NCBI GenBank assembly: GCA_963735785.1
Contig: CAVTMH010000001.1
Span: 161,444-225,443, forward strand
DNA length: 64,000 bases
Origin: an uncultured Chloroflexia bacterium
GTDB taxonomy: Bacteria; Chloroflexota; Limnocylindria; Limnocylindrales; CSP1-4
Reading direction: 5' to 3'
Shown: positions 11,857 through 47,571 of the stretch, one piece after another
How positions within the stretch are numbered: position 1 is the first letter of the stretch
Layout of the letters: the number at the start of each line of letters is the position of its first letter
Made by a program: the position numbers and the translations under genes
The notes under the pieces: generated by a model
Database searches by the model: none
What the model saw: only the letters and a program-made list of their open reading frames with translations
What the model was told of the DNA's origin: nothing

Positions 11857-11864
11857 GCGCCGGA

Positions 11865-12656: not shown

Positions 12657-13488
12657 GCGCGCGCAACATCCCGGAGGGCCGGGCCCCCGAAGGCTCCGGC
12701 GGGGTCGAGGGCGGCATCGCGGGCGGCGCAGGATCGGCCTCCGCGAGACGCTCGATACGTTCGAGGGCGCGCTGGACGGCCGAGCGGTGGAGGTCCAGCC
12801 GTTCGGCGAGCTCGGTCAGGGTCGCCTCCGGCGTCTCGCGGCGGGCGTCGGCGATCAGCCGCACCACGTATGGCTGCTCGGGCATCCGCCCGTCGGCGTC
12901 GAGCACGGCGATCGCGTCGAGCTGGCGACCGGCTGCGGCGACCGCCCGCTGGAGGTTGGCCGATTCGGCGTTGAGGACCCGGTTGAGCTCGCCGCGCAAG
13001 GCCCTCGAGACCTGGCGGGCCTCGAGCTCGAGGAGCGCACCGGCCGCGCCGATCCGGCGCAGGAACGTCCCGACGGCCTCGCTGCTCTTCCACGTCACGA
13101 CGCCTCGCCCGCGGCGAAGCCGCCACGACGCCGGCAACCCAACCTCGCGAAGGCGCTCGGCGAGCACGGGTGCGTCGTCCGGCGGCACGACGAACTCCAG
13201 GTGCGTCCGGCCGCCCGCCAGGCTCAGCGACCCGCGTGCCAGGAACCGCCCGCGCAGCCAGGCGGTGCGGCAGTGCTCGGCGGCCGTCGACCAGTCGAAC
13301 GGCGCGGCGCTCGCCTCTTCTCTCGCCCGGCGCAGCCGCACGGCCAGCCGCGCCACGGCGGGTTCCCGGGCTCCCACCTCGCTGCCCAGCCCGGCCGCTT
13401 CGGCGAGCCGGTCGCACGAGCGGGCCGGATCGACCGCCGCGAGCTCGTTGCGCAGGGCCGTGACGAGGTCCCGTTCGGAGCGCGTCAC
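12649..13488 (-). CDS. whiA: DNA-binding protein WhiA
   Basis: The body is LAGLIDADG-like with a C-terminal HTH (...LTELAERLDLHRSAVQRALERIERLAE), in the conserved yvcK-whiA position. GTG at 13488 lies 1 nt after the yvcK stop. An ATG at 13611 would overlap yvcK by 120 nt, so the start is uncertain. Confidence 0.8.
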   Translation of the reverse strand: MTRSERDLVTALRNELAAVDPARSCDRLAEAAGLGSEVGAREPAVARLAVRLRRAREEASAAPFDWSTAAEHCRTAWLRGRFLARGSLSLAGGRTHLEFVVPPDDAPVLAERLREVGLPASWRLRRGRGVVTWKSSEAVGTFLRRIGAAGALLELEARQVSRALRGELNRVLNAESANLQRAVAAAGRQLDAIAVLDADGRMPEQPYVVRLIADARRETPEATLTELAERLDLHRSAVQRALERIERLAEADPAPPAMPPSTPPEPSGARPSGMLRAHA

Positions 13489-13489
13489 C

Positions 13490-14827
13490 TCAAGCCGTCC
13501 GTCCGACGGTCCGGCGGCGGGTCGCGGTCTCGGCTTCGAGCGCCCGCATGATGGTGGCGGCCAGGCGGGCCGGATCATGGTGTCGGGCGTTGCCGGCATC
13601 GACCACGTCATCGAGGATCAGCCTGGGCACCGGCTGGACCGAGGCCGGCGGCCAGTGGAGGTCGACGGTCTCTGCCGCGGCCTCACCCGGGATGCGCGCC
13701 GCCGATCGATTGTTGGCCACGACCACATCGACGAGACCCGGCGCGGTATGCGCGATCAGCGCCTCGACGTGGGCGGCGAGGTCGAGGCCGGTCGTCTCGC
13801 CATCCTGGGTCGCGACGTTGCAGACGTACAGGCGGGGCGCCGTCGCGCTGATCAACGCGTCGCGGATCGCCGGCAGGAGCAGGCTCGGCAGCAGGCTCGT
13901 GTACAGGCTCCCGGGGCCCAGCACGATGAGCTCGGCGTCGGTGATGGCGGCAAGCGCGTCCCCCGACGCATCGACACCCTCGGGGGTGATCCACACCCGC
14001 TCGATGTCGGCCGTGCGCATGATGATCGACTGTCCGTCGACCACGGAGCCGTCACGGCACCGAGCGTGCAGGGTGAGGGGTGTCGCCGTGACCGGCACGA
14101 CCTTGCCACGGACGGCCAGGATCCGGTTGATACGGCGGACGCCCTCCTCGAAGTCGCCGCCCTCGATCGCCGTCATCGCGGCGAGCAGGAGGTTGCCGAG
14201 GGCGTGGCCGGCGAGGCCCGGTCCCTCCCTCGACGGGGTCGCCGTGTCCGCGACCGGGAACCGGTACTGGAGCAGCTCGTTCATCAATGGCTCGGCATCG
14301 GCAAGGGCGGCGATGCAGTTGCGGATGTCGCCGACCGGGGGGATGCCGAGCTCCGTCCGCAATACTCCGGACGATCCCCCGTCGTCCGCCACGGTCACTA
14401 CCGCGGTCAGGTTGCTGGTGTGCTCCTTGAGCCCGCGGAGGAGCGTGGAGAGCCCGGTCCCGCCGCCGATCGCCACGATGCGCGGGCCGCGCGCCAGGAA
14501 CCGCTTCTGGTAGATGACCTCGACGAGTGGTTGATCGGGATCGGAGGTCCGCAAAGGGTCCGTGACGACGCGCATCGCCCGATAGGCACCAAGCACCAGC
14601 AGCCCGACGCCGATCGATCCGACGATGAACCCGCGCAGCGGATACGGCAGGAACTGCAGGGTCGCGATGTCGATGAGCGCACCCGCCGGCCCACCGGGTT
14701 CGAGGTCGCGCGAGACCTGGCGGATCAGGTGCGCGAACGCCAACGCCAGCAGGAGCAACCCGAGGAACAGGACCAGCAGCCAGCGCTTGACGCCGATCCC
14801 GGGGGTCAGCCACCGGCGGAGGTTCAC
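13490..14827 (-). CDS. yvcK: YvcK/CofD-like gluconeogenesis-factor family protein with N-terminal membrane anchor
   Basis: RIVAIGGGTGLSTLLRGLK...VVTVADDGGSSG.LR...PPVGDIRNCI is the UPF0052/YvcK core. It has a 4-bp overlap with rapZ upstream. Confidence 0.9.
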   Translation of the reverse strand: MNLRRWLTPGIGVKRWLLVLFLGLLLLALAFAHLIRQVSRDLEPGGPAGALIDIATLQFLPYPLRGFIVGSIGVGLLVLGAYRAMRVVTDPLRTSDPDQPLVEVIYQKRFLARGPRIVAIGGGTGLSTLLRGLKEHTSNLTAVVTVADDGGSSGVLRTELGIPPVGDIRNCIAALADAEPLMNELLQYRFPVADTATPSREGPGLAGHALGNLLLAAMTAIEGGDFEEGVRRINRILAVRGKVVPVTATPLTLHARCRDGSVVDGQSIIMRTADIERVWITPEGVDASGDALAAITDAELIVLGPGSLYTSLLPSLLLPAIRDALISATAPRLYVCNVATQDGETTGLDLAAHVEALIAHTAPGLVDVVVANNRSAARIPGEAAAETVDLHWPPASVQPVPRLILDDVVDAGNARHHDPARLAATIMRALEAETATRRRTVGRTA

Positions 14828-28862: not shown

Positions 28863-29069
28863 CGAAGCTCCTCCAAGGTGACGGGGCACGACCGGGACAG
28901 GGGCGGCGGTGCGGACCAGTGCGCCGGCCTCCTCCAGGCGGCGCACCGCGAAGACTTTGGTCGTCCACCATAACCGCACCCGAGCGATCTGGTCACCCCA
29001 AAACCGCACCTCCCGCCACCTCAACGGTGCATGCAGGCACCGTTGATCGCGGGGTGATCCGCCGGCGCC

Positions 29070-29191
29070 ATGCTCGAGCCGGTGACCCTCCCCACGACCG
29101 TCAGCGATCGTCTCGCGCGCCTGACCGCCGACCAGCGTGCGGCGGCCACCGCACCCCCTGGACCCGTGCTGTGTGTCGCACCCGCGGGCTC
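29070..29191 (+). pseudogene. 5' fragment of a UvrD/Rep/PcrA-family helicase gene (first 40 2/3 codons, ends inside Walker A)
   Basis: ATG at 29070 gives MLEPVTLPTTVSDRLARLTADQRAAATAPPGPVLCVAPAGS. Reading continues through 5 unrelated codons to TAA at 29205-29207. The missing GKTTT... continues at 39672. Confidence 0.85.
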
Positions 29192-29272
29192 ACCGACTAC
29201 CGACTAAGCACACCGTAGGCACGGGCTCCGAGACTTCTGCCTTTGACCCGGTGTCTCTATCCTCACCACAGC

Positions 29273-29809
29273 ATGGTGATCGACCAAGGAACCGCAGTGC
29301 TCGCAGCGGCCCTACTTACCCTGCTTGGATTCATCGCCGGCAATGCGCTGCAGTTTGTCCTGGAGGAGCGACGCCGCGCTCAATCCGAGGCCAGGATCGA
29401 TGCGAAGGAAAGCGAGGCAAGGATCCGTGCTTTCGAGCTACGGCGCATCGATCACACCCGCCGCTCACTGGAACGAACGAGGCTCAAAGCGCTGCACTTG
29501 TTTGACGACCAAGTCGTCCCGGACGAGGGCGAGATGCTCGAGCTGTCGGACTTCCGCCTCATCGGGGACGCGGAGGCGGCACGCTTGTGGCACGTGATCG
29601 TGACCCGGCTTACCAAGGAGGGGGCAGAGGTTTTCGAGCAGGGAGGGCCGGTTCCGATCAAGCTGCTAAATGCGGCCGACCGCACCGACATGGCCCTTGC
29701 GCGTAATGCGGTGCTGACCGCTCTGGACGCCCAGGAGCGACGTGCCCTCCGTGGTGAACCGCTCGTGATCCTCGACCCGGCTACGGTGCCCGGGCTCGTT
29801 ACCAAATAG
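29273..29809 (+). CDS. hypothetical membrane-anchored coiled-coil protein (element cargo)
   Basis: ATG at 29273 (alternative TTG at 29243). It has one TM helix (GTAVLAAALLTLLGFIAGNALQFVL), then a charged helix EERRRAQSEARIDAKESEARIRAFELRR. A TATCCT -10-like hexamer lies about 10 nt upstream of the ATG. No family recognised. Confidence 0.5.
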   Translation: MVIDQGTAVLAAALLTLLGFIAGNALQFVLEERRRAQSEARIDAKESEARIRAFELRRIDHTRRSLERTRLKALHLFDDQVVPDEGEMLELSDFRLIGDAEAARLWHVIVTRLTKEGAEVFEQGGPVPIKLLNAADRTDMALARNAVLTALDAQERRALRGEPLVILDPATVPGLVTK

Positions 29810-29846
29810 ACTCGCCCGTCGCTCCGGCTCGAGCTGGCCGACAGTT

Positions 29847-29864
29847 TTTCCCGACGTCGGGAAA
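29847..29864 (+). terminator. perfect 18-bp palindrome after the cargo ORF
   Basis: TTTCCCGACGTCGGGAAA lies 38 nt after the stop at 29809. It could be a hairpin terminator or a protein-binding palindrome. Confidence 0.35.
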
Positions 29865-30000
29865 GGCCGGGATCGTCGTCCGGACGCGGAGCGGGCGAGC
29901 CTCGCCACGGTACCCGCGGGCGCTTGGCTGGGACTAAACGGTAGACGGCCCGATCAGGCCGTGACAGGCTAGGTGGACAACATCACGTGGGGGTTCGTCG

Positions 30001-30714
30001 ATGAGACGACTGATGATCCTGGCGCTGCTCGTGGCCGGCTGTGGGGGGACGGTCGCGAGCACGGCACCGAGCCCGAGTGCCGCGGCGGTCGCCCCGAGCA
30101 GGCCCACGTACTATCACGCGTCCGAGTGGGTGCCCAAGATCCAAACACTGGCCGAGGCCGGCGACTGCGCCGGCCTGCTCACGCTCCAGGACACCATCGT
30201 CCAGGCGGACGTGGACGTCTGGAAGGCGATCCAGGATGGTCTCGAGGCGTGTGCCGGCCCCACGCCGGAGCCGACTGCCGAGCCGACACCCGAAGGACCG
30301 ACCCTCTTCCAGCCGGGCGACGTCATCGAAATCACGCAAGACGCCGAACAGTGGGCCACGGTCACGATCAGCAAGGTCCGCGAGGTCAAGAAATACGACG
30401 GCGAGTTCGGCGATGACACGCCAGCCAAGGGCAACGTCTACCTCGAGGCGGTGATCACGTACACGGCCGTCGCCGACGGCGTCGACTACGGCCCGTTCGA
30501 CTGGCAGGTCTTCGTCGATGGCCAGGCCGTCGAGAACTTCACGTTCGTCTCAGAGGGTCCGACGCCAGAGCTGGGTTCTGGCACGCTGCCGAAGGGCCGC
30601 AAGGCGTCGGGCTACGTGGTCTACGAGGTCCCGACCAACGGCCAGGTGCTGCTGTCGTACGGCGGCTCGTTCGGCGATGCACCGGTTTTCGAGGTCGAAG
30701 TTCGGGGCGCTTGA
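30001..30714 (+). CDS. lipoprotein with C-terminal DUF4352-like beta-sandwich (element cargo)
   Basis: The MRRLMILALLVAGCGG lipobox and a Pro/Thr/Glu linker are followed by ...VTISKVREVKKYDG...GNVYLEAVITYTA...GTLPKGRKASGYVVYEVP..., resembling DUF4352. The domain call is from memory. Confidence 0.6.
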   Translation: MRRLMILALLVAGCGGTVASTAPSPSAAAVAPSRPTYYHASEWVPKIQTLAEAGDCAGLLTLQDTIVQADVDVWKAIQDGLEACAGPTPEPTAEPTPEGPTLFQPGDVIEITQDAEQWATVTISKVREVKKYDGEFGDDTPAKGNVYLEAVITYTAVADGVDYGPFDWQVFVDGQAVENFTFVSEGPTPELGSGTLPKGRKASGYVVYEVPTNGQVLLSYGGSFGDAPVFEVEVRGA

Positions 30715-30746
30715 GCCGACCCCCCGCGCGCTCAAGCGAACATGAC

Positions 30747-30783
30747 GACGCCCGGAGGGCCGGGGGAGACCACTCCGGGCGTC
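30747..30783. terminator. hairpin between convergent element genes
   Basis: GACGCCCGGA ... TCCGGGCGTC forms a perfect 10-bp stem with a 17-nt loop, between the stop at 30714 (+) and the stop at 30802 (-). Confidence 0.4.
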
Positions 30784-30801
30784 TGGGCTTGTCCAGTGAT
30801 G

Positions 30802-30989
30802 CTACCGGATGCCGCGCGCCGCGAGTGCCTCGTTGACGAGCTGGGTGACGAATCGCCGCAGGACGTCGACGAGCTCGGCCGGGTCGGCTTCGCGGCCGCG
30901 GTCGGGCCGTGCCACGGCGGCAACGGCTTCTCGATAGGCAGCATCTCGCGCTCGCGGTTCCAGGGCTCGCGGTCCTCGGCCACCTTCAC
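30802..30989 (-). pseudogene. small hypothetical gene, apparent frameshift
   Basis: GTG at 30989 forms a GTGA overlap with the upstream stop. High-GC3 reading gives MKVAEDREPWNREREMLPIEKPLPPWHGPTAAAKPT up to about 30885. High GC3 then continues in another frame (...AELVDVLRRFVTQLVNEALAARGIR*), ending at 30802. Confidence 0.4.
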
Positions 30990-31306
30990 GCGCCCTTCTC
31001 CGCAGCAGCCCAGCGGGCCGGCCGGACCTCGTTCTCGATGTGCTCGGCGAACTCGACGATCTGGCGGTCGATGTCGTTGAGGATGGCGTTGTGGAACTCG
31101 GAGAAGGCGTCCCGCTCGTCCTCGTCCATGAGGCCGTCCTCGATGACGTGGTTCGCGAGCTTCTCGATCCCGCGGGCGATCTGGCGGCTCGCCCGATTGG
31201 TGGTGATCCCGTACCCGTCGTCATAGCGCATCGTGGTCGTGCGCGCCATGCGCAGCCGGTCCTGGATCGTCTCGCGTGAGACGTGGCGGTTGATTCCTGT
31301 GGTCAT
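30986..31306 (-). CDS. hypothetical protein (element)
   Basis: ATG at 31306 lies 6 nt after GGAGGG. The 106 aa read MTTGINRHVSRETIQDRLRMARTTTMRYDDGYGITTNRASRQIARGIEKLANHV... No family recognised. Confidence 0.55.
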   Translation of the reverse strand: MTTGINRHVSRETIQDRLRMARTTTMRYDDGYGITTNRASRQIARGIEKLANHVIEDGLMDEDERDAFSEFHNAILNDIDRQIVEFAEHIENEVRPARWAAAEKGA

Positions 31307-31463
31307 CTCTGACCCTCCATACACGTACCCCCCGGCCGACGTATAGGCGTCGTCCAGGGGGCGGGTGAATGGTCGCATGCAGGCGGTCCGGCCGTCAGCC
31401 GAATCGCCGTTGTCGCCCGTCCTATACCGAGCTCGGTCACTGTGCGCCGGCGCAGCTACCGCG

Positions 31464-31799
31464 TCAAGGCTGACCCTCGCCGACCCTCTCGACCCAGACC
31501 TCGAGGATGTCCTGACGGTCCTCGGACCAGCTAGTCCGGACCCTGAGCCCGGCCAGAGCCGGATCGTCTCTGTTGTTCGCGATGGCGGCCAGCCACAAGT
31601 TGTGGTCGGTGCATCGGGGGAACGGCGCTTGGCGGACGTCGCCCGGGCGATCGACCCGTCCCATCGGCGTCGCGACACTGGTCCAGACCTCGATGGTCGG
31701 CCCTTCGTCGGGCAGGAGCGTCACGGGGTCCGCTCGCTCGGAGCATCCCCGGAACCGACACCGGATCGCGTGGGGAACGCCTCGGTCGTCGTCGGTCAT
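31464..31799 (-). CDS. hypothetical Cys/His-containing protein (element)
   Basis: 111-aa ORF with C-x4-C (IRCRFRGC) and C-x2-H (RCTDH), a possible zinc-binding set. No family recognised. Confidence 0.45.
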   Translation of the reverse strand: MTDDDRGVPHAIRCRFRGCSERADPVTLLPDEGPTIEVWTSVATPMGRVDRPGDVRQAPFPRCTDHNLWLAAIANNRDDPALAGLRVRTSWSEDRQDILEVWVERVGEGQP

Positions 31800-31820
31800 G
31801 GCCGCAAGCGTAATCCTGGA

Positions 31821-33065
31821 TTACGACGACTGGATCGCCCCGAGGGCAATGCCGTGGATGTCGACGGTCAGCCGACCGCCCTGCGGCTGGCCGGACGCGC
31901 TGAGGAACGTCAGGCGCCACAGACCGGGGTCGAAGTCGACGAGCTCGATCAGGTCGAGCAGGACTTCCTCTTCGTCGATCCCGCTGATCGAGCCACGTAG
32001 CTGCCAGGCGTCGCCGACCTCGGCCTTCCAGTAGCAACCCAGGATCACGTCGATCGAGGCCGGCATCGGCTCCTTGAAGATCCCGTAGGTCAGGCCGTGG
32101 GTGTGGCCGGCCACGGAGTGCTGATGGTCGGGGGTCGAGTGCGAATGGCTCCCGATCGTGACGCCATGCGTGTGCGAGGGGTCCTCGGTGAACGTCTCGA
32201 TCGATGACGAGCTGGCAACGGCCAGGTCGAAGAAGTGATCGGTGCCGCCGCCATCGGTGCCTCGGAACTTGTCGAGGGCGTAGCCGCCCGGCGTGGCGCC
32301 CACGAACGACGCCCAGATGTGCCGGTGGGCGCTGCCCGCGCTGGTCGGCGAGCTGCTTCCGCCGGAGCCCGACGTCGCCCCGCCGCCGCTGTCGCTGGTC
32401 AACGTGCCGGACGTGGCGGCGGACTTGGCCGGCGCCTCGAACTCGCGGAATCGCAGCCAGACCAGACACTCGATCATCGTGTGGACTCGGTCGGGCACGA
32501 TGAAGAAGTGCTCGTGCGCCTCGTCGGAGTCGAAGACGCCCGAGGCGGCAGCCGGGAACCCGCCCGCGCCGTGGTGGACGACGACGACCGCTCTCGGACG
32601 GAGCTGCCAGGCGATCCCGCCGCGCCCGTCCCGCTCGGGCCGGTAGGCCCAGCCCATCGGGGCAGCGTCGAGCCCGAGCCCGGCCATGTGCGCCTGCAGG
32701 TCGGCGCGGAAGCGGTCGTCGCGACCGAACATCGTCGGGAACCCCTCGTCCGGAGGGAAGCCATTGCGATCCTGCCACCAATGGACGAGCTCGTGGCGGA
32801 TGAGCGAGCGGAGCATGAACGCGGGCAGCCCTCGTTGAGCGATGATCACGGGGCGTGGATTGTTGGCGTACAGGCCCCACACGCCAGGAGGCACGAGCTC
32901 GGCCGGTAGGTCGTCCATCTCGGCGAGCCGGATCGGTGGCGCGAATGCGATCCGGGCGATCGCGTTCAGCTCGGCGAGCGCCCCGTCGATCGCGTCGCGG
33001 AGATCGTCGGTCAGCGGCAGCGGCTCGGTCGCGACCGGCGGCAGCGGCGGGGTGACCCAGCTCAT
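31821..33065 (-). CDS. hypothetical protein with N-terminal HExxH motif and C-terminal HxH-repeat, tail-fibre-like region
   Basis: ATG at 33065 forms an ATGA overlap with the upstream stop. It contains SLIRHELVHWWQD (HExxH), a Gly/Ser linker (SDSGGGATSGSGGSSSPTSAGS), then HTHGVTIGSHSHSTPDHQHSVAGHTHGLTYG. The 105 ORF-track codons upstream are Arg/Pro-rich noise. Confidence 0.55.
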   Translation of the reverse strand: MSWVTPPLPPVATEPLPLTDDLRDAIDGALAELNAIARIAFAPPIRLAEMDDLPAELVPPGVWGLYANNPRPVIIAQRGLPAFMLRSLIRHELVHWWQDRNGFPPDEGFPTMFGRDDRFRADLQAHMAGLGLDAAPMGWAYRPERDGRGGIAWQLRPRAVVVVHHGAGGFPAAASGVFDSDEAHEHFFIVPDRVHTMIECLVWLRFREFEAPAKSAATSGTLTSDSGGGATSGSGGSSSPTSAGSAHRHIWASFVGATPGGYALDKFRGTDGGGTDHFFDLAVASSSSIETFTEDPSHTHGVTIGSHSHSTPDHQHSVAGHTHGLTYGIFKEPMPASIDVILGCYWKAEVGDAWQLRGSISGIDEEEVLLDLIELVDFDPGLWRLTFLSASGQPQGGRLTVDIHGIALGAIQSS

Positions 33066-33280
33066 CCGGTCAGCGCGTCCTGTTCCTTGTCGTCGGCGTC
33101 GATCGCGTCCTCCAGGGCGACGTGCAGGACTTCGATCGCTCGTTCGGGGTCGGCGTAGCCGTGCGACCGCAGCATCTCCTCCCCGGTCCGGATGGCCGCC
33201 GCCAGGACGTGCGCCCGGAGCGGTTCGTCCGGGAGGCCGGGAGCGTGGTCGTGGCCGTCGCAGACGCTGTTGAGGGTCAT
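33062..33280 (-). CDS. hypothetical protein (element)
   Basis: 72-aa acidic ORF. Its start overlaps the HNH stop (ATGA-type) and its stop overlaps the next start. Confidence 0.45.
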   Translation of the reverse strand: MTLNSVCDGHDHAPGLPDEPLRAHVLAAAIRTGEEMLRSHGYADPERAIEVLHVALEDAIDADDKEQDALTG

Positions 33281-33747
33281 TCGGGGTCCTCCTCGGGGTA
33301 CGTGGTGATGACGCTGGATCGCGCCGGGTCGGTGTAGTCGGCGGTGATGACGGCCGATGGCGTAGGGGAGAGATTTGCAACAGGACGCAGGCTGTCAGCG
33401 AGCCCCTCGGTCGTGTTCCGCCCCCACCCCTGCTCGCTCCGCGTCTTGGCGTCGTGACAACGCTTGCTGAGCGACTGCCAGTTGCGGCGGTCCCAGGTCA
33501 GTGCCTGCAGCTCCGCAGCCGTGCGGGCCGTGGACCGCGGACGGATGTGATCGACCACCTCGGCCAGGCCCGAGCAGTCGGGACGATGCACCGCAGCGAC
33601 GCACCGGGGGTTCATGCGACGGAACGCCTTTGCGTGCCGGCGCCACTTCGAGGTCCAGTACAGGGACGCCAGGACATCGGGGCCGGGCACGACCCACCGA
33701 GCGGCCGAGACGGGCCGTGGGGCCGGGCGAGCGACCATGACCTTCAC
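33277..33747 (-). CDS. HNH endonuclease
   Basis: ...NPRCVAAVHRPDCSGLAEVVDHIRPRS...RRNWQSLSKRCHDAKT matches the C-x-C / DH / N / CH-x-x-KT layout of phage-type HNH nucleases. Confidence 0.8.
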   Translation of the reverse strand: MKVMVARPAPRPVSAARWVVPGPDVLASLYWTSKWRRHAKAFRRMNPRCVAAVHRPDCSGLAEVVDHIRPRSTARTAAELQALTWDRRNWQSLSKRCHDAKTRSEQGWGRNTTEGLADSLRPVANLSPTPSAVITADYTDPARSSVITTYPEEDPE

Positions 33748-33829
33748 GGCCGGTTCCTTGTGTATGTATATGTGACAGGGCGCAGGCTGTCAGTGACTGG
33801 ACCCGTCATGCCCCTACCCCACCCGGTGC

Positions 33830-34648
33830 TCACGACCGATGCCCCGGTGTGTGATCCGGACCGTACAGGCGGATACGGGTCGCGTCGTCCGGAGCGAACG
33901 CGGGCGGTTCGGTCTCGCGCCGTCCCTCCACCACGATCTTGGGCAGCGGCTCGGCATACCCGACCAGCTCCCGCTGCCGGGCATAGGCGTTCACGGATGC
34001 ACGCTCGGCGTCCGGGAGCTGCGCGAACCGCTCCGGATGCTGCTCGCGGATGGCCAGCAGGTTCTCGAGCTCCTGCGTCAGCACGAACTCGCGCCGTAGT
34101 GCCTCGGCCCTCAGGCCCTCGCTGGCCGTGCCCTCGAATGCCTCGGGCGCCTCGGACGACTGGACGCGGCTGGCCGCGGCCCGCTGCTTGTCGAGCGCCT
34201 CGCTGACGAACTCGATGAACGTCGGGAAGCGGACCATGCCGTGATCAATCGCATAGGGCGCGTTGTCGCCCACGGGGTCACGACCAACGCGGTGGACGCC
34301 GGGCAGCTCGCCGGCGGCCTGCAGGATCGCTCGGGCCTTGACGAGATCCTCGCCCAGCCGGTTCGCCTTCGCCATCTCGCGCACGGCATCGAGGTACAGC
34401 CGCGCGGCCTCCGCGAGATCGACCGTGATGGCCGCCGTGAGCGAGGCCAGGAGCGCACTCACCCGCTCGCCCGCCGCGCCTTGGGCCGTGCTGTACTCGA
34501 CGATGAAGCTCCAGGCCCACGCGATCGAGCGGAGGCGTCGTTTCTCCGTGGCCTTCGCGTCGGCGGCAGCCTGCCGTTGCCGTTCGGCCTCGACGGCGGC
34601 CTGAGCCTTCTCGGCGGCGGTGGCGAGGGTCGCGAGGTCTGTGGTCAC
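33830..34648 (-). CDS. hypothetical helical protein (element)
   Basis: 272-aa ORF, Ala/Glu/Arg-rich with a coiled-coil-like N-terminus. It has a 4-bp overlap with the upstream 88-aa ORF. No family recognised. Confidence 0.5.
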   Translation of the reverse strand: MTTDLATLATAAEKAQAAVEAERQRQAAADAKATEKRRLRSIAWAWSFIVEYSTAQGAAGERVSALLASLTAAITVDLAEAARLYLDAVREMAKANRLGEDLVKARAILQAAGELPGVHRVGRDPVGDNAPYAIDHGMVRFPTFIEFVSEALDKQRAAASRVQSSEAPEAFEGTASEGLRAEALRREFVLTQELENLLAIREQHPERFAQLPDAERASVNAYARQRELVGYAEPLPKIVVEGRRETEPPAFAPDDATRIRLYGPDHTPGHRS

Positions 34649-34911
34649 GCTGGGTCTCCTTCCGGGGAGAAGGCGCCGACCGCGATCGAGGCCTCGCGCT
34701 GGGCGATGTAGAGCGAGAGGGCCAGCGGGTCGCCGCCCATGGCGCGGTAGTCGCGATCGAACCGCTCGGCATCCAGGGCGCGGGTCGCCACGGCGGCCTC
34801 GGACTGCGGATCGGGCACGAACCCGCGGGCGGCTCGCAGGAGGGCCGCGCTGGCGGGGTCATCGGGCTGGCCGTAGTGGTCGGTCAGGCCGTCAGCGAGG
34901 GGGTCATCCAT
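34645..34911 (-). CDS. hypothetical acidic protein (element)
   Basis: ATG at 34911 (AAGGA upstream) gives the 88 aa MDDPLADGLTDHYGQPDDPASAALLRAARGF... The ORF-track version extends through a non-coding-looking region. Confidence 0.45.
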   Translation of the reverse strand: MDDPLADGLTDHYGQPDDPASAALLRAARGFVPDPQSEAAVATRALDAERFDRDYRAMGGDPLALSLYIAQREASIAVGAFSPEGDPA

Positions 34912-34977
34912 GTCGGTTCCTTTCAGCAGAGGGTCACGAGCTCCGGTCGTAAACGAAACGCGAGGCGGTGAGTTTCG

Positions 34978-35048
34978 ACCGACCCGCCGCGGGCTGCCGG
35001 GCCGGTCCTGGGAGGCGAGAACCTCACGACGAGCGGCGGCGGGTCGGT
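34978..35048. repeat. 13-bp perfect inverted repeat pair in the largest intergenic gap of the element
   Basis: ACCGACCCGCCGC (34978-34990) and GCGGCGGGTCGGT (35036-35048). Nearby are TTTCGCGA/TCGCGAAA (35057-35064 / 35074-35081) and the GGTCCGAAGTTTCGGACC palindrome (35114-35131) just after the primase stop. Confidence 0.6.
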
Positions 35049-35144
35049 GGTCTCCATTTCGCGAGTCCGTACATCGCGAAAAGAAGGGGCAAGGGTCAGC
35101 GGCGACCGCGAACGGTCCGAAGTTTCGGACCCGCCCTCGTCCGG

Positions 35145-36926
35145 TCACGTCGTCACCTCGTGCCAGGCGGTCGGCGGGTCGATGTCCTCGGGCTCCGGCG
35201 GGGGCCAAGCAGGGTCCTCGTCACCTACAGCCCACATTGGATCGGACCGCGGACCACCGCGGACCGGGGCGTCAGTCTCGGGTCCGCTGGTCCGCAGTGG
35301 TCCGCGGTCCGCGGCACTCTGACCTGTAGTCGAGTCGCGTAGGGCGATGCCTCGGTAGACGCGAACACGATCCTCACCTTCGCGCGGTCGACCGGCGCGC
35401 ATCCCGGGCACGACGGCGCGGAGGTTCCGCCCGAAGGTTTGGACGTTGCCGGCACGGTTGCCGTTGACTTCGGCCCACGCCTTCCATGCGCCGTAGATGA
35501 CGTCGATCGGCACCTCATGTGTGGGGCCAGTGACGCACTGCTCGCGAACGAACGCGGCGACCGGCGAGGCGAGATCCTGCAAGGCCAGGATCGCCTCATC
35601 AGTGCTTGCTGGCCGGGTGAACCGATCCTGCGCGACGAGCCGGTCCAGGCCGTCGAGCGCCCAGTTCAATATGCCGCTCAACTCCGCGGTCAGCCGATCC
35701 TCGAGGTTGTGATCCTCCCGGTTGAGCCACGACTCGCGGAGGAGCAACACGACGAACCGATTGGCGATCGTGGCCGATGCATCACCGAGCCGCGGCAGCT
35801 CGTTGCTGATGATGAGGAACCGCGTCGGCAGCTTGCCGGTCCACTGCTCCCGGTACTTGCGATTGACGGTGATGGTGTCCTCGCCGCTGATGGCCAGCAG
35901 TCGCTCGACGACGACCGAGGAATCCCTGCTCGCGTCCAGGCGCGCGTCAGAGATGACCGCCAGGCCCTTACCGAGCAGCGGTGCCATCCCGAAGTCGTGG
36001 GACAGGGAGGAGAGCGTTGGGCCGGCCACATTGGCAGGGCCGATGAGCTTGCCGAGGATGCGAGCGATCGTCCCCTTGCCGCCTCGGGTCGGCCCCACGA
36101 TCAACAGGATCTTGTGGTAGTCGAGCCGGCCGGACACGACGTAGCCCATGTACTCCTGCAGCGCCGCGATCGACTCGGGATCATCCGGCCAGAGCTCGGC
36201 TAGGAATCCGAGCCACCCGGCCGGCGACGGCGCATCCGGGTCGAAGGCGAACGGGACCGCAGTCTGGTTGAAGTAGGTCGGTGTGTGCGACAGCAGCTCG
36301 CGTCCGTCGAGCCGAAGCAGGCCGTTCGCGACCGCCACCACGGGATGTCCATCGACGCCGATCCAGGACGGCTGATCTGTCGTCTCGTCGAGGTGAACGA
36401 CCGCGGCCATCGCCTCGAGCAGGTTCCCGATCTTGAACCTGGTCGGCTGCCATGGCTGGAGTGCCTTGTCGGGATCGAGGTAGCTCGCCTTCTCGGTGAA
36501 GGCGTACGCCTCGGCCCGGACGGCGCGCTCCTCACGCTCGGCCCAATGCGACGTTCGCCAGGCCCACCAGCCGCCGCGCCAGTGACGCAGCGTCAACGTG
36601 CCGTGACGATCGTGCCGCTCGGCGAACGTGCGGGCGACGCCCATCGGGCTCGAGGGCGATGGCAGGACCGGCTTCTCCAGGACCTCGGCGACGACCTCGG
36701 GGCCGTGGAGCTTGCTCAGAGCCCGGATCTCCTCGGCGCTGATCCTGGAGCGCCGCAGCCTGGTCACGATCTGTTGGCGCGTCTCCGGCTCTGGTTTGGC
36801 ACCCATTGGTGCCAGTTCTGCCTGCCGGATCGGGGTCGGCTCGGTTGCGTGACCGTTGGCGCGGGTCGACGGCAGGAACCACTCACCGGTCGTGGGGTCC
36901 AAGACCATCGGCTCGTAATCGCTCAC
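35145..36926 (-). CDS. P4/D5-family DNA primase-helicase (SF3 NTPase)
   Basis: 593 aa with a D5_N-like middle region and the Walker A LLIVGPTRGGKGTIARIL. ...LAVISDARL... and ...RFLIISNELP... follow as Walker B and motif C equivalents. The layout resembles phage/plasmid primase, P4-family C-terminal domain. Confidence 0.8.
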   Translation of the reverse strand: MSDYEPMVLDPTTGEWFLPSTRANGHATEPTPIRQAELAPMGAKPEPETRQQIVTRLRRSRISAEEIRALSKLHGPEVVAEVLEKPVLPSPSSPMGVARTFAERHDRHGTLTLRHWRGGWWAWRTSHWAEREERAVRAEAYAFTEKASYLDPDKALQPWQPTRFKIGNLLEAMAAVVHLDETTDQPSWIGVDGHPVVAVANGLLRLDGRELLSHTPTYFNQTAVPFAFDPDAPSPAGWLGFLAELWPDDPESIAALQEYMGYVVSGRLDYHKILLIVGPTRGGKGTIARILGKLIGPANVAGPTLSSLSHDFGMAPLLGKGLAVISDARLDASRDSSVVVERLLAISGEDTITVNRKYREQWTGKLPTRFLIISNELPRLGDASATIANRFVVLLLRESWLNREDHNLEDRLTAELSGILNWALDGLDRLVAQDRFTRPASTDEAILALQDLASPVAAFVREQCVTGPTHEVPIDVIYGAWKAWAEVNGNRAGNVQTFGRNLRAVVPGMRAGRPREGEDRVRVYRGIALRDSTTGQSAADRGPLRTSGPETDAPVRGGPRSDPMWAVGDEDPAWPPPEPEDIDPPTAWHEVTT

Positions 36927-37084
36927 GCCGCCACCTCATCGCGATGACGACGAAGGATTCGAAGGGCTCGAGACAGCCCCTCGAATGGGCCGAAGGGAAT
37001 CCGGCCAACGTCCGAGAGGTGCCAAGCGCCCTCATATGCGACTTCGACGGCAGCTAGGATCGTGCGCAGCTCGTCTCGGGACAT
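36923..37084 (-). CDS. small hypothetical protein (element)
   Basis: ATG at 37084 gives the 53 aa MSRDELRTILAAVEVAYEGAWHLSDVGRIPFGPFEGLSRALRILRRHRDEVAA. Its stop overlaps the primase start by 4 nt. Confidence 0.4.
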   Translation of the reverse strand: MSRDELRTILAAVEVAYEGAWHLSDVGRIPFGPFEGLSRALRILRRHRDEVAA

Positions 37085-37115
37085 GGCGACATCCGCGCTG
37101 GCCGCGGGGGTAGAC

Positions 37116-37346
37116 TCAGCTCGTCGATCGGCGGGCATTGGTGGTGCCCTCCTCGACAACGGCCCCACCGGGCGTACCGATCGCCGGCGGGGCCTTTCTC
37201 TTGTACCGGGGGTTCGGGATCGGGGTGAGCATCGCGGCTGCCCGAGAGAGCAAGTGGGTATCGGAGACGAGGCGCGGTAGCGCCTGGTCCCTAGTGGTCC
37301 GCTCGACGAGCGCCTCTGCGGCCTCGCGGAGCTCGCCGGGGATCAC
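37116..37346 (-). CDS. small hypothetical protein (element)
   Basis: GTG at 37346 forms a GTGA overlap with the XRE-gene stop. The ORF is 76 aa with G/C-rich third positions. Confidence 0.4.
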   Translation of the reverse strand: MIPGELREAAEALVERTTRDQALPRLVSDTHLLSRAAAMLTPIPNPRYKRKAPPAIGTPGGAVVEEGTTNARRSTS

Positions 37347-37555
37347 GGGCGAAACCGTTCTGGTTCGGGCGCTTCGAGCGCATCCAGATAGCGCTCGACG
37401 GCCCGCCTTGGCGGCAGATACATCCCCTCGAGGCTGGCGATCCTGGTCCGGCCGACGCCCATCCGCGCGGCGACGTCGTGCTGGCGCAGCCCTGCGGCCT
37501 TCCGGCGTACCAAGAGGTCCAAGCCAGTGATGCGACGTGCCGTAGCAATTGCCAT
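37343..37555 (-). CDS. XRE/Cro-type helix-turn-helix regulator
   Basis: 70 aa. LVRRKAAGLRQHDVAARMGVGRTRIASLE is a classic HTH_XRE pattern. It is the first gene of the leftward replication operon. Confidence 0.75.
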   Translation of the reverse strand: MAIATARRITGLDLLVRRKAAGLRQHDVAARMGVGRTRIASLEGMYLPPRRAVERYLDALEAPEPERFRP

Positions 37556-37570
37556 ACCGTCATGCTAGGA

Positions 37571-37620
37571 TGGCAAAGTGGCAAAGAGACCTCTGGCAAC
37601 GGCAGGAATGCGGCAGGAAT
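37571..37620. promoter_or_regulatory. candidate operator array between divergent regulators
   Basis: TGGCAAAG occurs twice in tandem (37571-78, 37579-86) and GGCAGGAAT twice with 11-bp spacing (37601-09, 37612-20). GGCA recurs seven times within 37571-37627. A TAGGAT -10-like hexamer lies at 37565-70. Confidence 0.4.
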
Positions 37621-38225
37621 CGGCACGCTTGGTTTCGGACGGGCTCCGGGAAGCTGTCGAGGCACGGTTACGCTTCGGTCTGACCTACGCCGAGATCGCC
37701 CGCGAGCTCGAGGACGAGGAGAAGGCGGGCCGCCTCGCGCATGCGCCAGCCGAACGCACAATCCGGTCGTGGGTGGCGACCGGCAAGGTCCGGCGACCGG
37801 CCGGGCCGCGCGAGCCTTGGTCCGTCGCCAGCGGACGTGCTGACGAAGTGGCTTTCGTCGTGCCAGTCCTTCGCGACTTGGTCCGCATACGTCCGGACGC
37901 ACCGTGGCCCTCCATTCGTGAGGCAGAGATCATCACGAGGATCCGTCGAGTAGCGGATGTCCCGGGCGTGATCGCCCTAACGCTTGCGGGCCTGTACGTC
38001 GAACGCGAAAGACGTCACGAGTCGACCGAGGAGCTCGACCTATATCTGGCCTTCGCACCCTGGCGCGACGAGGAGGCGAATAAGGAGTACATCGTGATCG
38101 CGAACTCCAGCGCCGGCCGCTTTCGTGCCCTATGGGTATCGCAGTTCGAGCCCGGCCGCGTCACGGTGGGCGTGAACGCGACCGTCGGCGTCAGTGTCAG
38201 CGCAGTGCGGCGCTCGGTCCTCTAG
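37578..38225 (+). CDS. putative HTH regulator (repressor-like), divergent from the XRE gene
   Basis: 215-aa ORF (GTG at 37578; in-frame ATG at 37608 is a likelier start). LRFGLTYAEIARELEDE...RTIRSWV looks like an HTH. The rest has no recognised family. Confidence 0.5.
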   Translation: MAKRPLATAGMRQESARLVSDGLREAVEARLRFGLTYAEIARELEDEEKAGRLAHAPAERTIRSWVATGKVRRPAGPREPWSVASGRADEVAFVVPVLRDLVRIRPDAPWPSIREAEIITRIRRVADVPGVIALTLAGLYVERERRHESTEELDLYLAFAPWRDEEANKEYIVIANSSAGRFRALWVSQFEPGRVTVGVNATVGVSVSAVRRSVL

Positions 38226-39625
38226 GCCACGTCTCGCCATTCCACGTCGACCCGCGACGGATCGAACCGACGGCCGCGTTGTGCCACGGGGTTGACGACG
38301 ATCCGGGCCACGAACAGGCGCACGAGCTCGTGGCGCCATGTCACCGGCCGTCGTTCCCATTCCGCCCGAACGTCGATTCCCGCGACCCGGCCGAGTCCGG
38401 CCGTCGATGACGCGGTCTCGAGCTTCCGCCGGGCGGCATCGATGCGCCCCTCCAAGGCTTCGCGGACCCGCTGGTACTGCGCCTTCGGCAGCGTCCGGCG
38501 GACGTAGTAGTCGGCCGACGCCTCGGCCAGGGCATCCTCGTCACCGCGGAGCTGCTCCAGGTCAACGGTCGTCTCGCTGCGACCGGCGCGCGCGGACAAG
38601 GCCGTCCGGAAAGCGGGCGAGTCGAGCCGGAGCATCAGAGCCTCGATGACGAGCGGCTCGAGGTACTTGGCCGCGATCACGAGCCCACCGCAACCGCGGG
38701 TGGCCATGCAGCAATAGCGGGTCACACCGCGCGCATCGGGGCGAGCCACGAGCTTGGCGCCGCACCGTCCGCACACTGCCAAGCCGGTCAGGACATGGCG
38801 GCGCACGGCCCGAGTACCCACGGGGCCGTTACGGGCCGCCAGGACGGCCCTGAGCCGTTCCCACGTCTCGCGATCGAGCAGGGCCGGGATGACGCCGGTC
38901 CCGACGACGACGCCATGGTGGGAGCGATCGCCGACGATGCGGGGGGCGGTCAGCATCCGTTTGAGGCTCGACGCCTCCCAACGACGCCCGGCCGGCGTCA
39001 CGACCCCGCGTCCGTTCCAGTCCGTGACAATCGCAGACACGGACTCGCCGGCGAGGATGCGCTCGGCGGCCTCACGGATGTGCGCGGCCTCCTCTGGCAC
39101 CGCCGCAAGCCGGTCGGGCTGCAGACCGAATGAGCGGATTCCGCCACCGTTCGGGCGGCCCGTCTCGGCGATCTCGCGCGCCTTACGACGGATGCGCAGA
39201 GCAGACGTCTCCGTCTCGAGCTTGGCCCAAGTGATAGACATGCGGAACATCGCCCGTCCGCCCGGACTGGTCAGGTCGATGCCCGGGTCGTTCAGCGAGA
39301 CGATGCCGAACTGCCGCGCGTCGGCCAGATCGATGACCCTCTCGGCTTCCTTCGGATGACGGAGAAGGCGATCGAGCTTGTAGGTCAGCACCGCATCGAC
39401 GTGTACCCCGTCGCCGAGGTCGGCCAGCATCCGCTCGAAGTCCGGGCGCGGTCGCTGCAGGTTCGAGGCAGAGTGGTCGGGATCTTCGTAGATGGCTGCC
39501 ACGCGCCAGCCTTCGCGAGCGGCACGGGCCTGACAGTCACTGATCTGTCGTTGAGTAGCCGTAGCCTCGCCCGCCCGGGCCGTGGCGTCCTCTTGGCTGA
39601 GTCTGGCGTAGATCGCAACGTCCAT
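38222..39625 (-). CDS. large serine recombinase (integrase)
   Basis: MDVAIYARLSQED (catalytic Ser), the resolvase core ...LTYKLDRLLRH..., a recombinase domain, the zinc ribbon CGRCGAKL...YCC...GCGG and a coiled-coil C-terminus. ATG at 39625 (alternative TTG at 39661), 10-46 bp from the element end. Confidence 0.9.
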   Translation of the reverse strand: MDVAIYARLSQEDATARAGEATATQRQISDCQARAAREGWRVAAIYEDPDHSASNLQRPRPDFERMLADLGDGVHVDAVLTYKLDRLLRHPKEAERVIDLADARQFGIVSLNDPGIDLTSPGGRAMFRMSITWAKLETETSALRIRRKAREIAETGRPNGGGIRSFGLQPDRLAAVPEEAAHIREAAERILAGESVSAIVTDWNGRGVVTPAGRRWEASSLKRMLTAPRIVGDRSHHGVVVGTGVIPALLDRETWERLRAVLAARNGPVGTRAVRRHVLTGLAVCGRCGAKLVARPDARGVTRYCCMATRGCGGLVIAAKYLEPLVIEALMLRLDSPAFRTALSARAGRSETTVDLEQLRGDEDALAEASADYYVRRTLPKAQYQRVREALEGRIDAARRKLETASSTAGLGRVAGIDVRAEWERRPVTWRHELVRLFVARIVVNPVAQRGRRFDPSRVDVEWRDVA

Positions 39626-39671
39626 TCCCCGGAGTGTGCGTCCACGAGTGTGCTTTGTCAATCATGGCATC

Positions 39672-41220
39672 CGGCAAGACGACGACGCTCGTGGCCCGGA
39701 TCGCGTGGCTGATCGGCACGGGCGGAGCGCCGGCCGACGGCATCGCGGCGATCACGTTCAACAAGCGCGCCGCGGAGGAGCTCGCGGAGCGGCTCGACTC
39801 GGCCCTGGCGTATCTTGATGTCGCGGCGGGCACGGTCCGCGTCCGGACGTTCCATGCGCTGGGCCGCGAGATCCTTCGCGACGCGTGCCACTCGGTGGAG
39901 CCGCTGGTCGATCGGGCGACGATCATCCGGGAACTCTGGCCGGACGTGACCTCGGTCGAGATCGGACAGCTCGACACGGCGTTCTCGCGTTTGAAGCTGG
40001 ACCTTGGCGCGGTGGCGGCGGATGTCGCCGCGGATCCTGGTGCCGGGCCGGTCGCCCGGGCCTTCGTCGCGTACGAGGGCGCGATCATGTCGCGAGGCGG
40101 GCTCGACTTCGACGACCTCATCGGACGCGCGCTACGTGCGCTCGACGGCGACGCGGTCCTGCTGGCCAGATGGCGTGAACGCTGCAGCCACCTGCTCGTC
40201 GACGAGGTCCAGGACGTGGACCGTTCGCAGATCCGCCTCGCGCTGCTCCTGGCCGCGCCGACCAACAGGATCTTCCTCGTCGGAGACGACGACCAGTCGA
40301 TCTATGGCTGGCGGTTGGCCGATGTTCGCCGAGTGCTCGCGCTGGATGCGGCACTCCCCGGTCTGCGCCGTGTCGACCTGCATGTGAACCACCGCTGTCC
40401 AGTGCCGGTCGTGGAACGCGCGGTCCGGCTCATCGAACACAACCGCGAGCGGTTCGCCAAGATCGTCCGACCGCGACCCGATGCGCCCGGTCGCCTGATC
40501 CTGGCGCCGGACGCGACCGACGAGCCGGCACGGACCGAGCGGCTGCTCCGGTCATGGCCCGACGACGACGGTACGCGCGCGATCCTGGCCAGGTCGAATC
40601 GCGAGTTGCGGCCCGCGGTGCTGGCTGCCCTCGCCGCCGGCGAGCCGTTCCGGGCGCCGTCCGTCGGCCTCCTCGTCGACGATCCGGCGCTCGACGAGTT
40701 GCTTGCGCGCGCCGCCACCGCGACAGATCCCCATCAACCGCTCCTCGTCCGGCTCGCGGCTGTTCGGCGCGGACTCGCGACCGACGGGACGGACGCGCAA
40801 CGGGAGCTCGCCACCGCCCTGCTGGCCTGGGCTCCGCCGTACGCCGACCTGGAGGCGCTCGTCGCCGCGATGGCATCGACGCGCGCGAGGCTCGGTGCGC
40901 TTCGCCGCGACGACGCCCGGCTCAGCCTCGCCACGGCGCACTCGACGAAGGGCGCCGAATTCGACCATGTCGCCGTGGTCGGGATGGAACAGGGCCGCTT
41001 CCCCAGCGGCCGCGCCGTCGCCGAGTCCACCGAACCGGGGCGTGCGCTCGAGGAGGAGCGGCGCCTCGGCTACGTCGCCTGGACCCGGGCGCGCCGGACC
41101 CTCACCCTGAGCTACGACCCGGCGGTCCCCTCCCAGTTCCTCCTGGAGGCGTTCAGCCGCGAGGAGCTCGGGCTGGACGAGGAGCGGGCGCCCGCGCCAC
41201 TCACCCTCTCGAGCGATTGA
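39672..41220 (+). pseudogene. 3' fragment (516 codons) of the UvrD/Rep/PcrA-family helicase gene
   Basis: It resumes with GKTTTLVARIAWL..., then ITFNKRAAEEL, RTFHALG, LLVDEVQDV, FLVGDDDQSIYGWR, NHRC, TAHSTKGAEFDHV and YVAWTRAR. The ORF-track start (MCVHECALSIMAS) is element DNA read in frame. Confidence 0.85.
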
Positions 41221-45119: not shown

Positions 45120-45134
45120 TCGAACAGGTGTTCG
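45120..45134. promoter_or_regulatory. LexA-type SOS box upstream of uvrA
   Basis: TCGAACAGGTGTTCG (GAAC-N4-GTTC palindrome). On the minus strand, a TAGACT -10-like hexamer (45098-45103) lies 6 nt before the GTG start at 45091. Confidence 0.7.
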
Positions 45135-47556: not shown

Positions 47557-47571
47557 TCGAACAGGTGTTCG
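47557..47571. promoter_or_regulatory. LexA-type SOS box upstream of uvrB
   Basis: This 15-mer, TCGAACAGGTGTTCG, is identical to the uvrA box. A TAGAAT -10-like hexamer (47535-47540, minus strand) lies 6 nt before the GTG start at 47528. Confidence 0.7.

Follow-up and report, generated by a model that had tools for sequence, protein, structure and literature searches.

A Walker-A serine codon as the attachment site of small phage-derived elements in Limnocylindria-type Chloroflexota

A gene for a UvrD/Rep/PcrA-type helicase lies in two parts in the DNA analysed here, a stretch of 64,000 nucleotides from an uncultured Chloroflexota bacterium (assembly GCA_963735785.1, contig CAVTMH010000001.1, positions 161,444 to 225,443 of the forward strand) that we call the window and whose own numbering is used throughout. 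The break falls within the Walker-A (P-loop) codons, and the locus raises the question of what split the gene and whether excision of the intervening DNA conditionally reconstitutes it. We hold with high confidence that the insert is a mobile element using a conserved attachment site (attB) in the helicase Walker-A codons. The disruption of the gene is most likely a tolerated by-product of the choice of site and not an evolved repair switch; conditional reconstitution of the helicase by excision is less probable on the evidence available.

The split gene and its junctions

The 5' fragment of the helicase gene (29070-29191, plus strand) consists of codons 1-40 and the first two bases of the codon for Ser41, and its translation is MLEPVTLPTTVSDRLARLTADQRAAATAPPGPVLCVAPAGS. 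The 3' part (39672-41220, plus strand) runs for 516 codons from the third base of Ser41 to the stop and reads (S)GKTTTLVARIAWL…. When 29191 is joined to 39672, the result is an open reading frame (ORF) of 1671 nt, encoding 556 amino acids and a stop, with an APAGSGKTTT Walker A, which confirms to the base the join proposed in the initial annotation of this DNA. In the integrated state the 5' fragment continues via PTTD to a TAA stop at 29205-29207; the stop had been placed correctly, and what had been described as five unrelated codons before it are a hybrid TCA codon for serine and then four foreign ones, a trivial difference. The reconstructed protein matches the Pfam families UvrD-helicase (2.5e-51, residues 18-266), AAA_19 and UvrD_C (8.4e-20), and among PDB entries it matches the structures of UvrD, Rep and PcrA, the best being E. 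coli UvrD (1.6e-52). It has the Q motif, Walker A, DExx box, motif III (GDxxQxIYxWR) and C-terminal motifs of the UvrD/Rep/PcrA group of superfamily 1A (SF1A) helicases, and these motifs are invariant in an alignment of 14 sequences. In the same alignment the reconstructed protein shows no gap at the junction, and the 41-codon fragment retains all of the near-invariant N-terminal residues. A search of a large protein collection found more than 100 uninterrupted orthologues (540-560 amino acids, 74-84% identity), in which the N-terminal stretch RLARLTxDQRAAATAPPGPVLCVAPAGSGKTTT spans the junction; those with 80-84% identity can be aligned directly across it. The initial annotation had allowed that the fragment might bear no resemblance to helicase N-termini, or that the orthologues might naturally begin near the GKT motif; neither is the case, as the fragment resembles the N-termini of the orthologues and these cover it in full.

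Both halves of the helicase gene are free of stops and frameshifts and appear undecayed: at columns that do not otherwise vary they have three private changes, where the 63 sequences compared average 1.1 and reach at most 4. While the element is integrated the helicase is presumably inactive, because the 45-residue stub leaves the helicase sequence after Gly40 and the 3' part has neither a promoter nor the N-terminus with its Q motif and strand β1. The right-hand junction provides an in-frame ATG at 39664 (39664-39672: ATG GCA TCC GGC AAG), from which translation would begin MASGKTTT; gene callers therefore give a 518-residue 'helicase', and this truncated product of the window is itself present in the protein collection (P0001, 518 amino acids). 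We considered whether this ATG is a meaningful start and dropped the idea, since it is absent from a related occupied locus (L093); it is probably there by chance.

The insert occupies 29192-39671 (10,480 bp) and is bounded by two copies of the dinucleotide TC, one at 29190-29191 (plus strand), the centre of attL and positions 1-2 of the Ser41 codon, and one at 39670-39671 (plus strand), the centre of attR. TC is the only sequence that attL (GCGGGC-TC-ACCGACTACCGACTAAGCACAC) and attR (GTGTGCTTTGTCAATCATGGCA-TC-CGGCAAG) have in common. On the element side of the left copy lies the P arm of the phage-type site (attP; 29192-29213, minus strand; GTGTGCTTAGTCGGTAGTCGGT when read towards the centre), and at the other end lies the integrase-proximal P' arm (39648-39669, plus strand; reverse complement TGCCATGATTGACAAAGCACAC), which holds a TTGACA conserved in the family described below. 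The predicted attP is 46 bp long (junction TTGTCAATCATGGCATCACCGACTACCGAC) and has a 22+2+22 bp layout whose arms are imperfect inverted repeats, matching at 14 of 22 positions and including GTGTGCTT.GTC at their distal ends. The predicted attB is GTCGCACCCGCGGGC-TC-CGGCAAGACGACG, and the reconstructed empty site reads …GCGGGCTCCGGCAAG… (empty attB, GTCGCACCCGCGGGCTCCGGCAAGACGACG). A 22+2+22 layout with a non-palindromic central dinucleotide is what is expected of a serine-integrase attP (PMC3783163, PMC5062993), and the sites in the window have imperfect dyad symmetry, an identical non-palindromic 2-bp crossover and no other common core.

The gene of a large serine recombinase of 467 amino acids (38222-39625, minus strand; start set from homologues) sits at the right end of the insert, with only 46 bp between the crossover and its start codon. 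Its Pfam matches are Resolvase (9e-26, residues 15-169 of the long ORF), Recombinase (PF07508, 4.7e-14) and Zn_ribbon_recom (PF13408, 2.6e-7); it also matches PHROG 95, 'integrase' (1.7e-90), and shares about 33% identity with the serine integrases of actinophages. The PDB entry 9iu2 ('Integrase', 500 amino acids) is matched at 7.6e-16 over residues 21-402; the search gave no organism, and we take this entry to be Bxb1 integrase. The protein is full length and has the invariant residues of its family, and the catalytic serine, S10 in IYARLSQ, is invariant across 12 family members. Every testable detail of the initial annotation's central claim, that the helicase is split in its Walker-A codons by an element of about 10.5 kb whose right end encodes a large serine recombinase and whose crossover is at TC, holds.

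The element's own serine integrase recombined attP with attB in the P-loop codons, with a staggered cut on the TC of Ser41 (APAG-S-GKT). Judged from the two junctions, the insertion is shown to be the conservative attP × attB product of a large serine recombinase at the P-loop serine codon. The choice of site is probably explained by the extreme conservation of P-loop-coding DNA, which makes such a target reliably present. As recombination by serine integrases is conservative, excision would restore the helicase gene exactly; it would need the integrase together with a directionality factor, which could be a 76-residue protein of the element (see below) or a factor supplied by a helper phage.

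Between the integrase gene and the crossover (39626-39671), and at the equivalent positions in L082-L097, the conserved TTGACA is followed about 17 nt on by an xAxxxT hexamer (TAGAGT, TAGTCT, CAGACT, CACACT) that ends 6-7 nt before the integrase ATG. From its conservation across loci this pair may be a leaderless-type integrase promoter, which we offer as a note rather than a claim: a consensus promoter scan of the window did not call the pair in the integrase-proximal arm, and sigma-70 consensus scans gave nothing near the start of either the integrase or the helicase. If the promoter is real, it overlaps the integrase's own binding site, and autoregulation would be implied.

A family of elements at one codon

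In the protein collection some 40 clusters consist of integrases 60-86% identical to that of the window, and DNA context was recovered for 15 of them. At least 13 distinct loci are occupied, 11 of them co-directional and two divergent; with the window itself counted, three are divergent. In the co-directional loci (L082, L083/84, L086, L087, L090, L091, L092, L095, L096, L097/98 and L100/101) the integrase gene directly follows a helicase N-terminal fragment ending …APAG, and uvrC or a 5'-nucleotidase gene adjoins. In the window and in L093/94 the integrase gene points away from the C-terminal part of the helicase; the third divergent case, apparently, is the contig that encodes P0152, judged from its gene table. 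The divergent orientation occurs in three separate integrase sub-lineages, each of which is closest to co-directional relatives. Insertions at the same site recur in independent assemblies from ENA, JGI, NCBI and Logan.

Two of the co-directional loci, L097 (element of about 9.9 kb) and L101 (about 7.3 kb), hold both junctions, and removal of their elements in silico rebuilds APAGSGKTT, so that the gene is restored in this way for three complete elements, those of the window, L097 and L101. The attP sites deduced for L097 and L101 have an AG centre and 22-bp arms, CTTTAGG-AG-CCTAAAG and …TATTGCCG-AG-CGACAATG…. Two further loci, L085 and L089, encode integrases 85-86% identical to that of the window; upstream of these genes, instead of the helicase, lies a symmetric TTCGGG-AG-CCCGAA, the outer arm of which is homologous to the left end of the window's element and its P arm. 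This is attP in its unintegrated state.

The crossover was placed by aligning the integrase-proximal 22-nt arms without gaps, and invariably it falls on the first two bases of the Walker-A serine codon. Nine loci, all in hosts with an AGY codon, have AG as their crossover, whereas the window (TCC), L093 (TCG) and L092 have TC when read on the strand of the helicase; the empty sites of relatives have AGC (four), TCG (one) and TCC (one). A simple rule by which AGY codons go with co-directional and TCN codons with divergent insertion was dropped, as L092 has a TC centre yet is co-directional, and a one-base shift of the crossover between the two orientations was rejected once the 22-nt P' arms had been aligned. 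Comparison of these occupied, empty and unintegrated sites shows that a family of small phage-derived elements in Limnocylindria-type Chloroflexota has the Walker-A serine codon as its dedicated attB, which is entered in either orientation. L092 is unusual in another respect: the N-terminal helicase fragment and the integrase make up a single reading frame (1148-2728; called as the 523-residue P0137), and in this stub the codon for P-loop Gly40 is GAT (Asp), which may be stub decay or a sequencing error.

Elements of the family measure 7-12 kb. In ORF-level blastp comparisons (tblastx was set aside as noise in DNA of 69% G+C), their cargo is non-homologous from one element to another except for the integrase, the 76-residue protein and, in L092 only, a helix-turn-helix (HTH) regulator. 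The relatives carry primases of the Prim-Pol/DUF3987, DUF3631, AAA_25 or D5 types together with HNH and Terminase_4 genes, and single relatives have a large terminase gene (L095) or a capsid gene (L096). L100 and L101, from two samples, share an identical 471-residue integrase (P0125) and the same attL and have different adjoining genes downstream of the integrase, a 186-residue gene on the opposite strand in L100 and genes for a 63-residue and an HTH_31 protein in L101; this shows very recent exchange of cargo beside the integrase.

The 76-residue protein of the window (37116-37346, minus strand; motif ELRxAAxxLVERTTxxQGLPxxIxDPxxLARLAxLL) has homologues 0.4-2.5 kb downstream of the integrase gene, on the same strand, in all 12 of the loci that extend that far. 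A jackhmmer search of the locus ORFs recovered them at E values of 1e-14 to 1e-22, after a first pass of blastp against L085 and L083, and a motif of about 40 residues (LVERTTxxQGLPxxIxDPxxLARLAxLL) is common to them; the protein matches no Pfam or PHROG family. We propose it as a candidate recombination directionality factor, since its gene travels with the integrase while the other cargo changes.

Cargo and chromosomal setting

Genes within the insert were called from coding periodicity (codon-position GC) and from Pfam, PHROG and NCBIfam family searches; the G+C content of the insert is like that of the host. At the left end lie two genes on the plus strand, one for a predicted membrane protein of 188 amino acids (29243-29809; supported by GC periodicity, start codon uncertain, no family match) and one for a predicted lipoprotein of 237 amino acids (30001-30714) with a signal peptide, an LLVAGC lipobox and a weakly DUF4352-like C-terminal half. 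The genes that follow are on the minus strand. Two ORFs of unknown function, of 230 (30986-31678; coding periodicity in the C-terminal part only) and 111 amino acids (31464-31799), precede a phage tail-module-type protein of 414 amino acids (31821-33065; PHROG 4311, 7.8e-6), which has a zinc-protease-like HELVH motif, a Gly/Ser linker and a His-x-His-rich C-terminus (HTHGVTIGSHSHSTPDHQHSVAGHTHG). This protein has about 18 relatives among 5.8 billion proteins and no match among GenBank phages; its best homologue (P0242, 56% identical) is encoded in a phage tail gene cluster (L099) beside an HK97-gp10-like gene. It was originally called as a 519-residue ORF (31821-33380) and was shortened to the ATG at 33065 because the first 105 or so codons show no coding periodicity and overlap a 72-residue gene in another frame. 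That gene (33062-33280, minus strand) has no known function, as is the case for ORFs of 272 (33830-34648, minus strand) and 187 amino acids (34645-35208, minus strand; weak coding signal in its 5' part), and between the first and the latter two lies an HNH endonuclease gene (33277-33747, minus strand; PHROG 2323, 2.4e-16, with a weak Pfam HNH match). A 57-nt direct repeat, 70% identical between its copies at 33373-33429 (inside the HNH gene) and 33768-33824 (just upstream of it), contains the small palindrome TGACAGG..CTGTCA and may be a regulatory or packaging (cos/pac-like) site.

The next gene encodes a P4-family primase with a D5-type superfamily 3 helicase (35145-36926, minus strand; TIGR01613, 152 bits against a cut-off of 108.7; also DUF5906, D5_N, Pox_D5 and, at 7.9e-74, PHROG 6088), which is the replication protein of the element. 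At its 3' end, where coding periodicity fades, an inverted repeat (35225-35329) with 41-nt arms that are 80% complementary is made of repeated GGACCGCGGACC units and is a candidate replication origin of the element. Between the primase and integrase genes lie that of the 76-residue protein, near which a further protein of 81 amino acids may be encoded, that of a Cro/CI-type HTH regulator of 70 amino acids (37343-37555, minus strand; HTH_31, 5.5e-9), the first gene of the leftward operon, and, divergent from it, that of a putative repressor-like regulator of 215 amino acids (37578-38225, plus strand; called from coding periodicity). Searches of Pfam, PHROG and NCBIfam found no domain in the latter, LexA/CI-type autocleavage domains included.

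The same three collections revealed no capsid, portal, large terminase or lysis gene in the insert, which is therefore a phage-derived element and not an autonomous phage. Satellites are characterised by small size (about 7-18 kb), an integrase, a pair of divergent regulators, a primase and the lack of a full virion and lysis set; at 10,480 bp, with its integrase, its HTH and divergent regulators and its P4-family primase, the insert resembles them in each of these traits. We conclude that it is an integrative element derived from a phage and not autonomous, which resembles a satellite or may be a cut-down prophage.

The genomes nearest to the window are metagenome-assembled genomes (MAGs) of Chloroflexota labelled Chloroflexia or Candidatus Limnocylindrales, and not Actinobacteria, which identifies the host, by sequence affinity, as a Limnocylindria-type Chloroflexota bacterium; an actinobacterial origin, to which the G+C content had pointed, was rejected on these grounds. 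The helicase gene sits between uvrC and uvrA-uvrB, as it does in L081, L001, L003, L006 and L007, and from this neighbourhood nucleotide excision repair is a candidate role for the helicase. The closest relative with a long contig is L081 (helicase 82%, UvrA 93% and UvrC 92.5% identical), where secD/F is followed by uvrC, the genes of an HYR protein and a 5'-nucleotidase, the intact helicase gene, a small ORF, a DUF6941 gene and uvrA; the window has the same order, but its helicase holds the insert, and uvrB lies beyond uvrA. None of the element's genes is present in L001-L007 or L081. In L081 uvrA is called as two ORFs (674 and 285 amino acids; 10442-13499), probably through a frameshift in a long-read assembly rather than a genuine split.

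The helicase stop (41220) lies 785 bp from the 3' end of uvrA (42005), in keeping with the 0.8 kb estimated in the initial annotation, and the boxes that had earned the uvrA and uvrB genes the description SOS-boxed are real: a perfect GAAC-N4-GTTC 12-mer, GAACAGGTGTTC, occurs at 45122-45133 and at 47559-47570, in each case 31 nt upstream of the start codon of uvrA or uvrB. This is presumably the LexA motif of Gram-positive bacteria and Dehalococcoides, and it suggests that a Cheo-box-type LexA regulon may operate in this Chloroflexota lineage. A copy with one mismatch, GCACAGGTGTTC, lies at 61314-61325. The 5'-nucleotidase and helicase genes diverge from a gap of 46 bp that holds a perfect 9-bp inverted repeat, CAACGGTGC-N6-GCACCGTTG (29021-29044), which is kept in L081 (CGGTGC-N6-GCACCG) and not in remoter relatives; it may be an operator for some regulator.

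Competing explanations and known systems

The evidence could also be read as a regulated, reversible switch ('active lysogeny'), in which non-lethal excision under DNA damage, in a given growth phase or on phage attack would turn the helicase on and reintegration would turn it off, in the manner of SpyCIM1 with mutL and of phi10403S with comK. The split is precise and both halves of the gene are undecayed, the gene lies between uvrC and a uvrA-uvrB pair with LexA-type boxes, one gene has been entered repeatedly, and close relatives occur in metagenomes in unintegrated attP forms; there are, moreover, precedents in a phage-like island that controls a DNA-repair gene (PMC4689407, PMC3430984) and in comK and spsM (PMC7397523, PMC5499854). 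However, no GAAC-N4-GTTC box with up to one mismatch precedes the helicase or separates the two divergent regulators of the element (nor does uvrC have a box), and the putative repressor is without a recognisable LexA/CI-type cleavage domain, so that the link between helicase splitting and DNA damage raised in the initial annotation is unsupported. Most orthologous sites are empty and the cargo is almost wholly non-homologous among the occupied ones; this is the pattern of ordinary mobile elements with a common attB and not that of a domesticated switch, in which one element would be stably associated with one gene. The Gly40-to-Asp change in L092 hints, in addition, that the gene is not always kept repairable. 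We consider such a switch unlikely. Its extension, a clade-wide on/off control of the helicase in soil and freshwater Chloroflexota, triggered by a helper phage or stress and generating helicase-proficient and helicase-deficient sub-populations that are possibly hyper-recombinogenic or mutator, is doubtful to a like degree. Were it true, the serine codon, six-fold degenerate between AGY and TCN, would be a host-side 'lock' that the elements follow through their crossover dinucleotide and even their orientation.

At the other extreme, the insert could be a dead remnant, a decayed prophage unable to excise that has left the helicase a permanent pseudogene. The lack of capsid, portal, large terminase and lysis genes would fit such a remnant, and a single tail-module gene amid unrelated cargo suggests deletion and mosaicism. 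Yet the integrase is full length with its invariant residues and catalytic serine, both att arms are intact and symmetric, the candidate directionality factor and the regulators are intact, and the helicase halves have no stops, frameshifts or excess of private substitutions; a small element with a primase and an integrase is, besides, the usual design of a satellite, and the 7.3- and 9.9-kb relatives have the same layout. We judge a dead remnant to be quite improbable. A further possibility is an assembly chimera, as the contig is apparently metagenome-derived and its closest relatives are all MAGs. A misjoin by a metagenome assembler would not, however, fall twice on the same dinucleotide, restore an ORF of 556 codons, possess quasi-palindromic arms beside an integrase gene, or recur at the same codon in assemblies from ENA, JGI, NCBI and Logan, and we regard the chance that both junctions are chimeric as negligible.

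A mobile element with a conserved attB in the Walker-A codons remains the reading that we favour, and recent or ongoing mobility agrees with the intact integrase, att arms and candidate directionality factor, the free attP forms and the undecayed helicase. Several points weigh against it. The census of occupied sites is small, at 13 loci; the junctions of the window element are known from assembled sequence, and its excision product is predicted; and the directionality factor is a candidate deduced from co-occurrence. In IMG/VR the attP junction of the window element was not found, and the integrase family was essentially absent from that database as scanned; a primase search of it gave nothing useful. 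Finally, apart from the HNH gene, no packaging gene was recognised in the window element, which makes its description as a satellite insecure.

Elements that split genes by means of a serine integrase are an established class, to which this event belongs, and its mechanism is textbook. Skin in sigK, with its recombinase SpoIVCA, and Bxb1 in groEL1 are members of this class, as are SPbeta in spsM (SprA/SprB; PMC5499854) and the comK prophages A118 and phi10403S (PMC7397523). In common with SPbeta, skin, A118 and Bxb1, the window element has an integrase at its end, a short att site with a 2-bp crossover, and a position within a coding sequence from which precise excision rebuilds the gene (PMC5499854, PMC7397523, PMC3783163). 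The initial annotation had cited Bxb1, SPbeta and skin as precedents, which is right for the class of event; these actinobacterial and Firmicutes examples are analogies only, the host being a member of the Chloroflexota. The window element is non-autonomous and about 10 kb in size, whereas SPbeta is a prophage of 134 kb and skin measures 48 kb. It differs from the SPbeta, skin, comK and Bxb1 systems in its Chloroflexota host, in its target, the P-loop of an SF1 helicase, in the use of both orientations at one site, and in having no known developmental or infection cue.

In function the closest analogy is offered by SpyCIM1, a phage-like island of Streptococcus pyogenes that controls the mismatch-repair gene mutL through its state of integration (PMC4689407, PMC3430984) and is likewise a small element, of the phage-inducible chromosomal island (PICI) class, in a DNA-repair gene. 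SpyCI, however, occupies the 5' end of mutL and keeps an operon from being transcribed, whereas the window element splits a catalytic motif, and excision and reintegration have been demonstrated by experiment for SpyCI, the window element being known from sequence alone. The closest architectural analogy is the PICI-like element (PLE) of Vibrio cholerae, a satellite of about 18 kb with a large serine recombinase as its integrase and a directionality factor supplied by the helper phage ICP1 (PMC6002521). PLE can serve as a model of how a helper phage may trigger excision; it integrates into a repeat element and not into a protein-coding motif, and its cargo is unrelated in sequence to that of the window element. 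The size range of 7-12 kb, the integrase at one end, the divergent regulators and the primase-helicase module are shared with PICI and P4 satellites, and the relatives of the window element also share with them a small terminase subunit and HNH. The window element differs from PICIs and P4 in that it carries a tail-module gene and in that neither a small terminase gene nor one for capsid remodelling is recognisable in it. The integrases of classical PICIs and of P4 are of the tyrosine type.

In full-text literature searches we found no earlier description of a UvrD-type helicase gene as the attB of a serine integrase. What is new here is the target, the phylum, an integrase family devoted to the site, and a crossover dinucleotide and orientation that co-vary with the serine codon of the host. 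If excision were conditional, this would be a second phage-like island gating DNA repair, after SpyCI in mutL; we found no evidence for that. The family, with more than ten relatives, supplies a natural set of attP/attB pairs from a barely studied phylum, with three effective crossover settings and both orientations at a single site, which may serve the study of how integrase site compatibility evolves and provide a source of orthogonal enzymes for genome engineering. Mobile elements are, to our knowledge, almost undescribed in Limnocylindria-type Chloroflexota, and the present analysis identifies small satellite-like elements there, for which DNA encoding a P-loop can be a dedicated attachment site.

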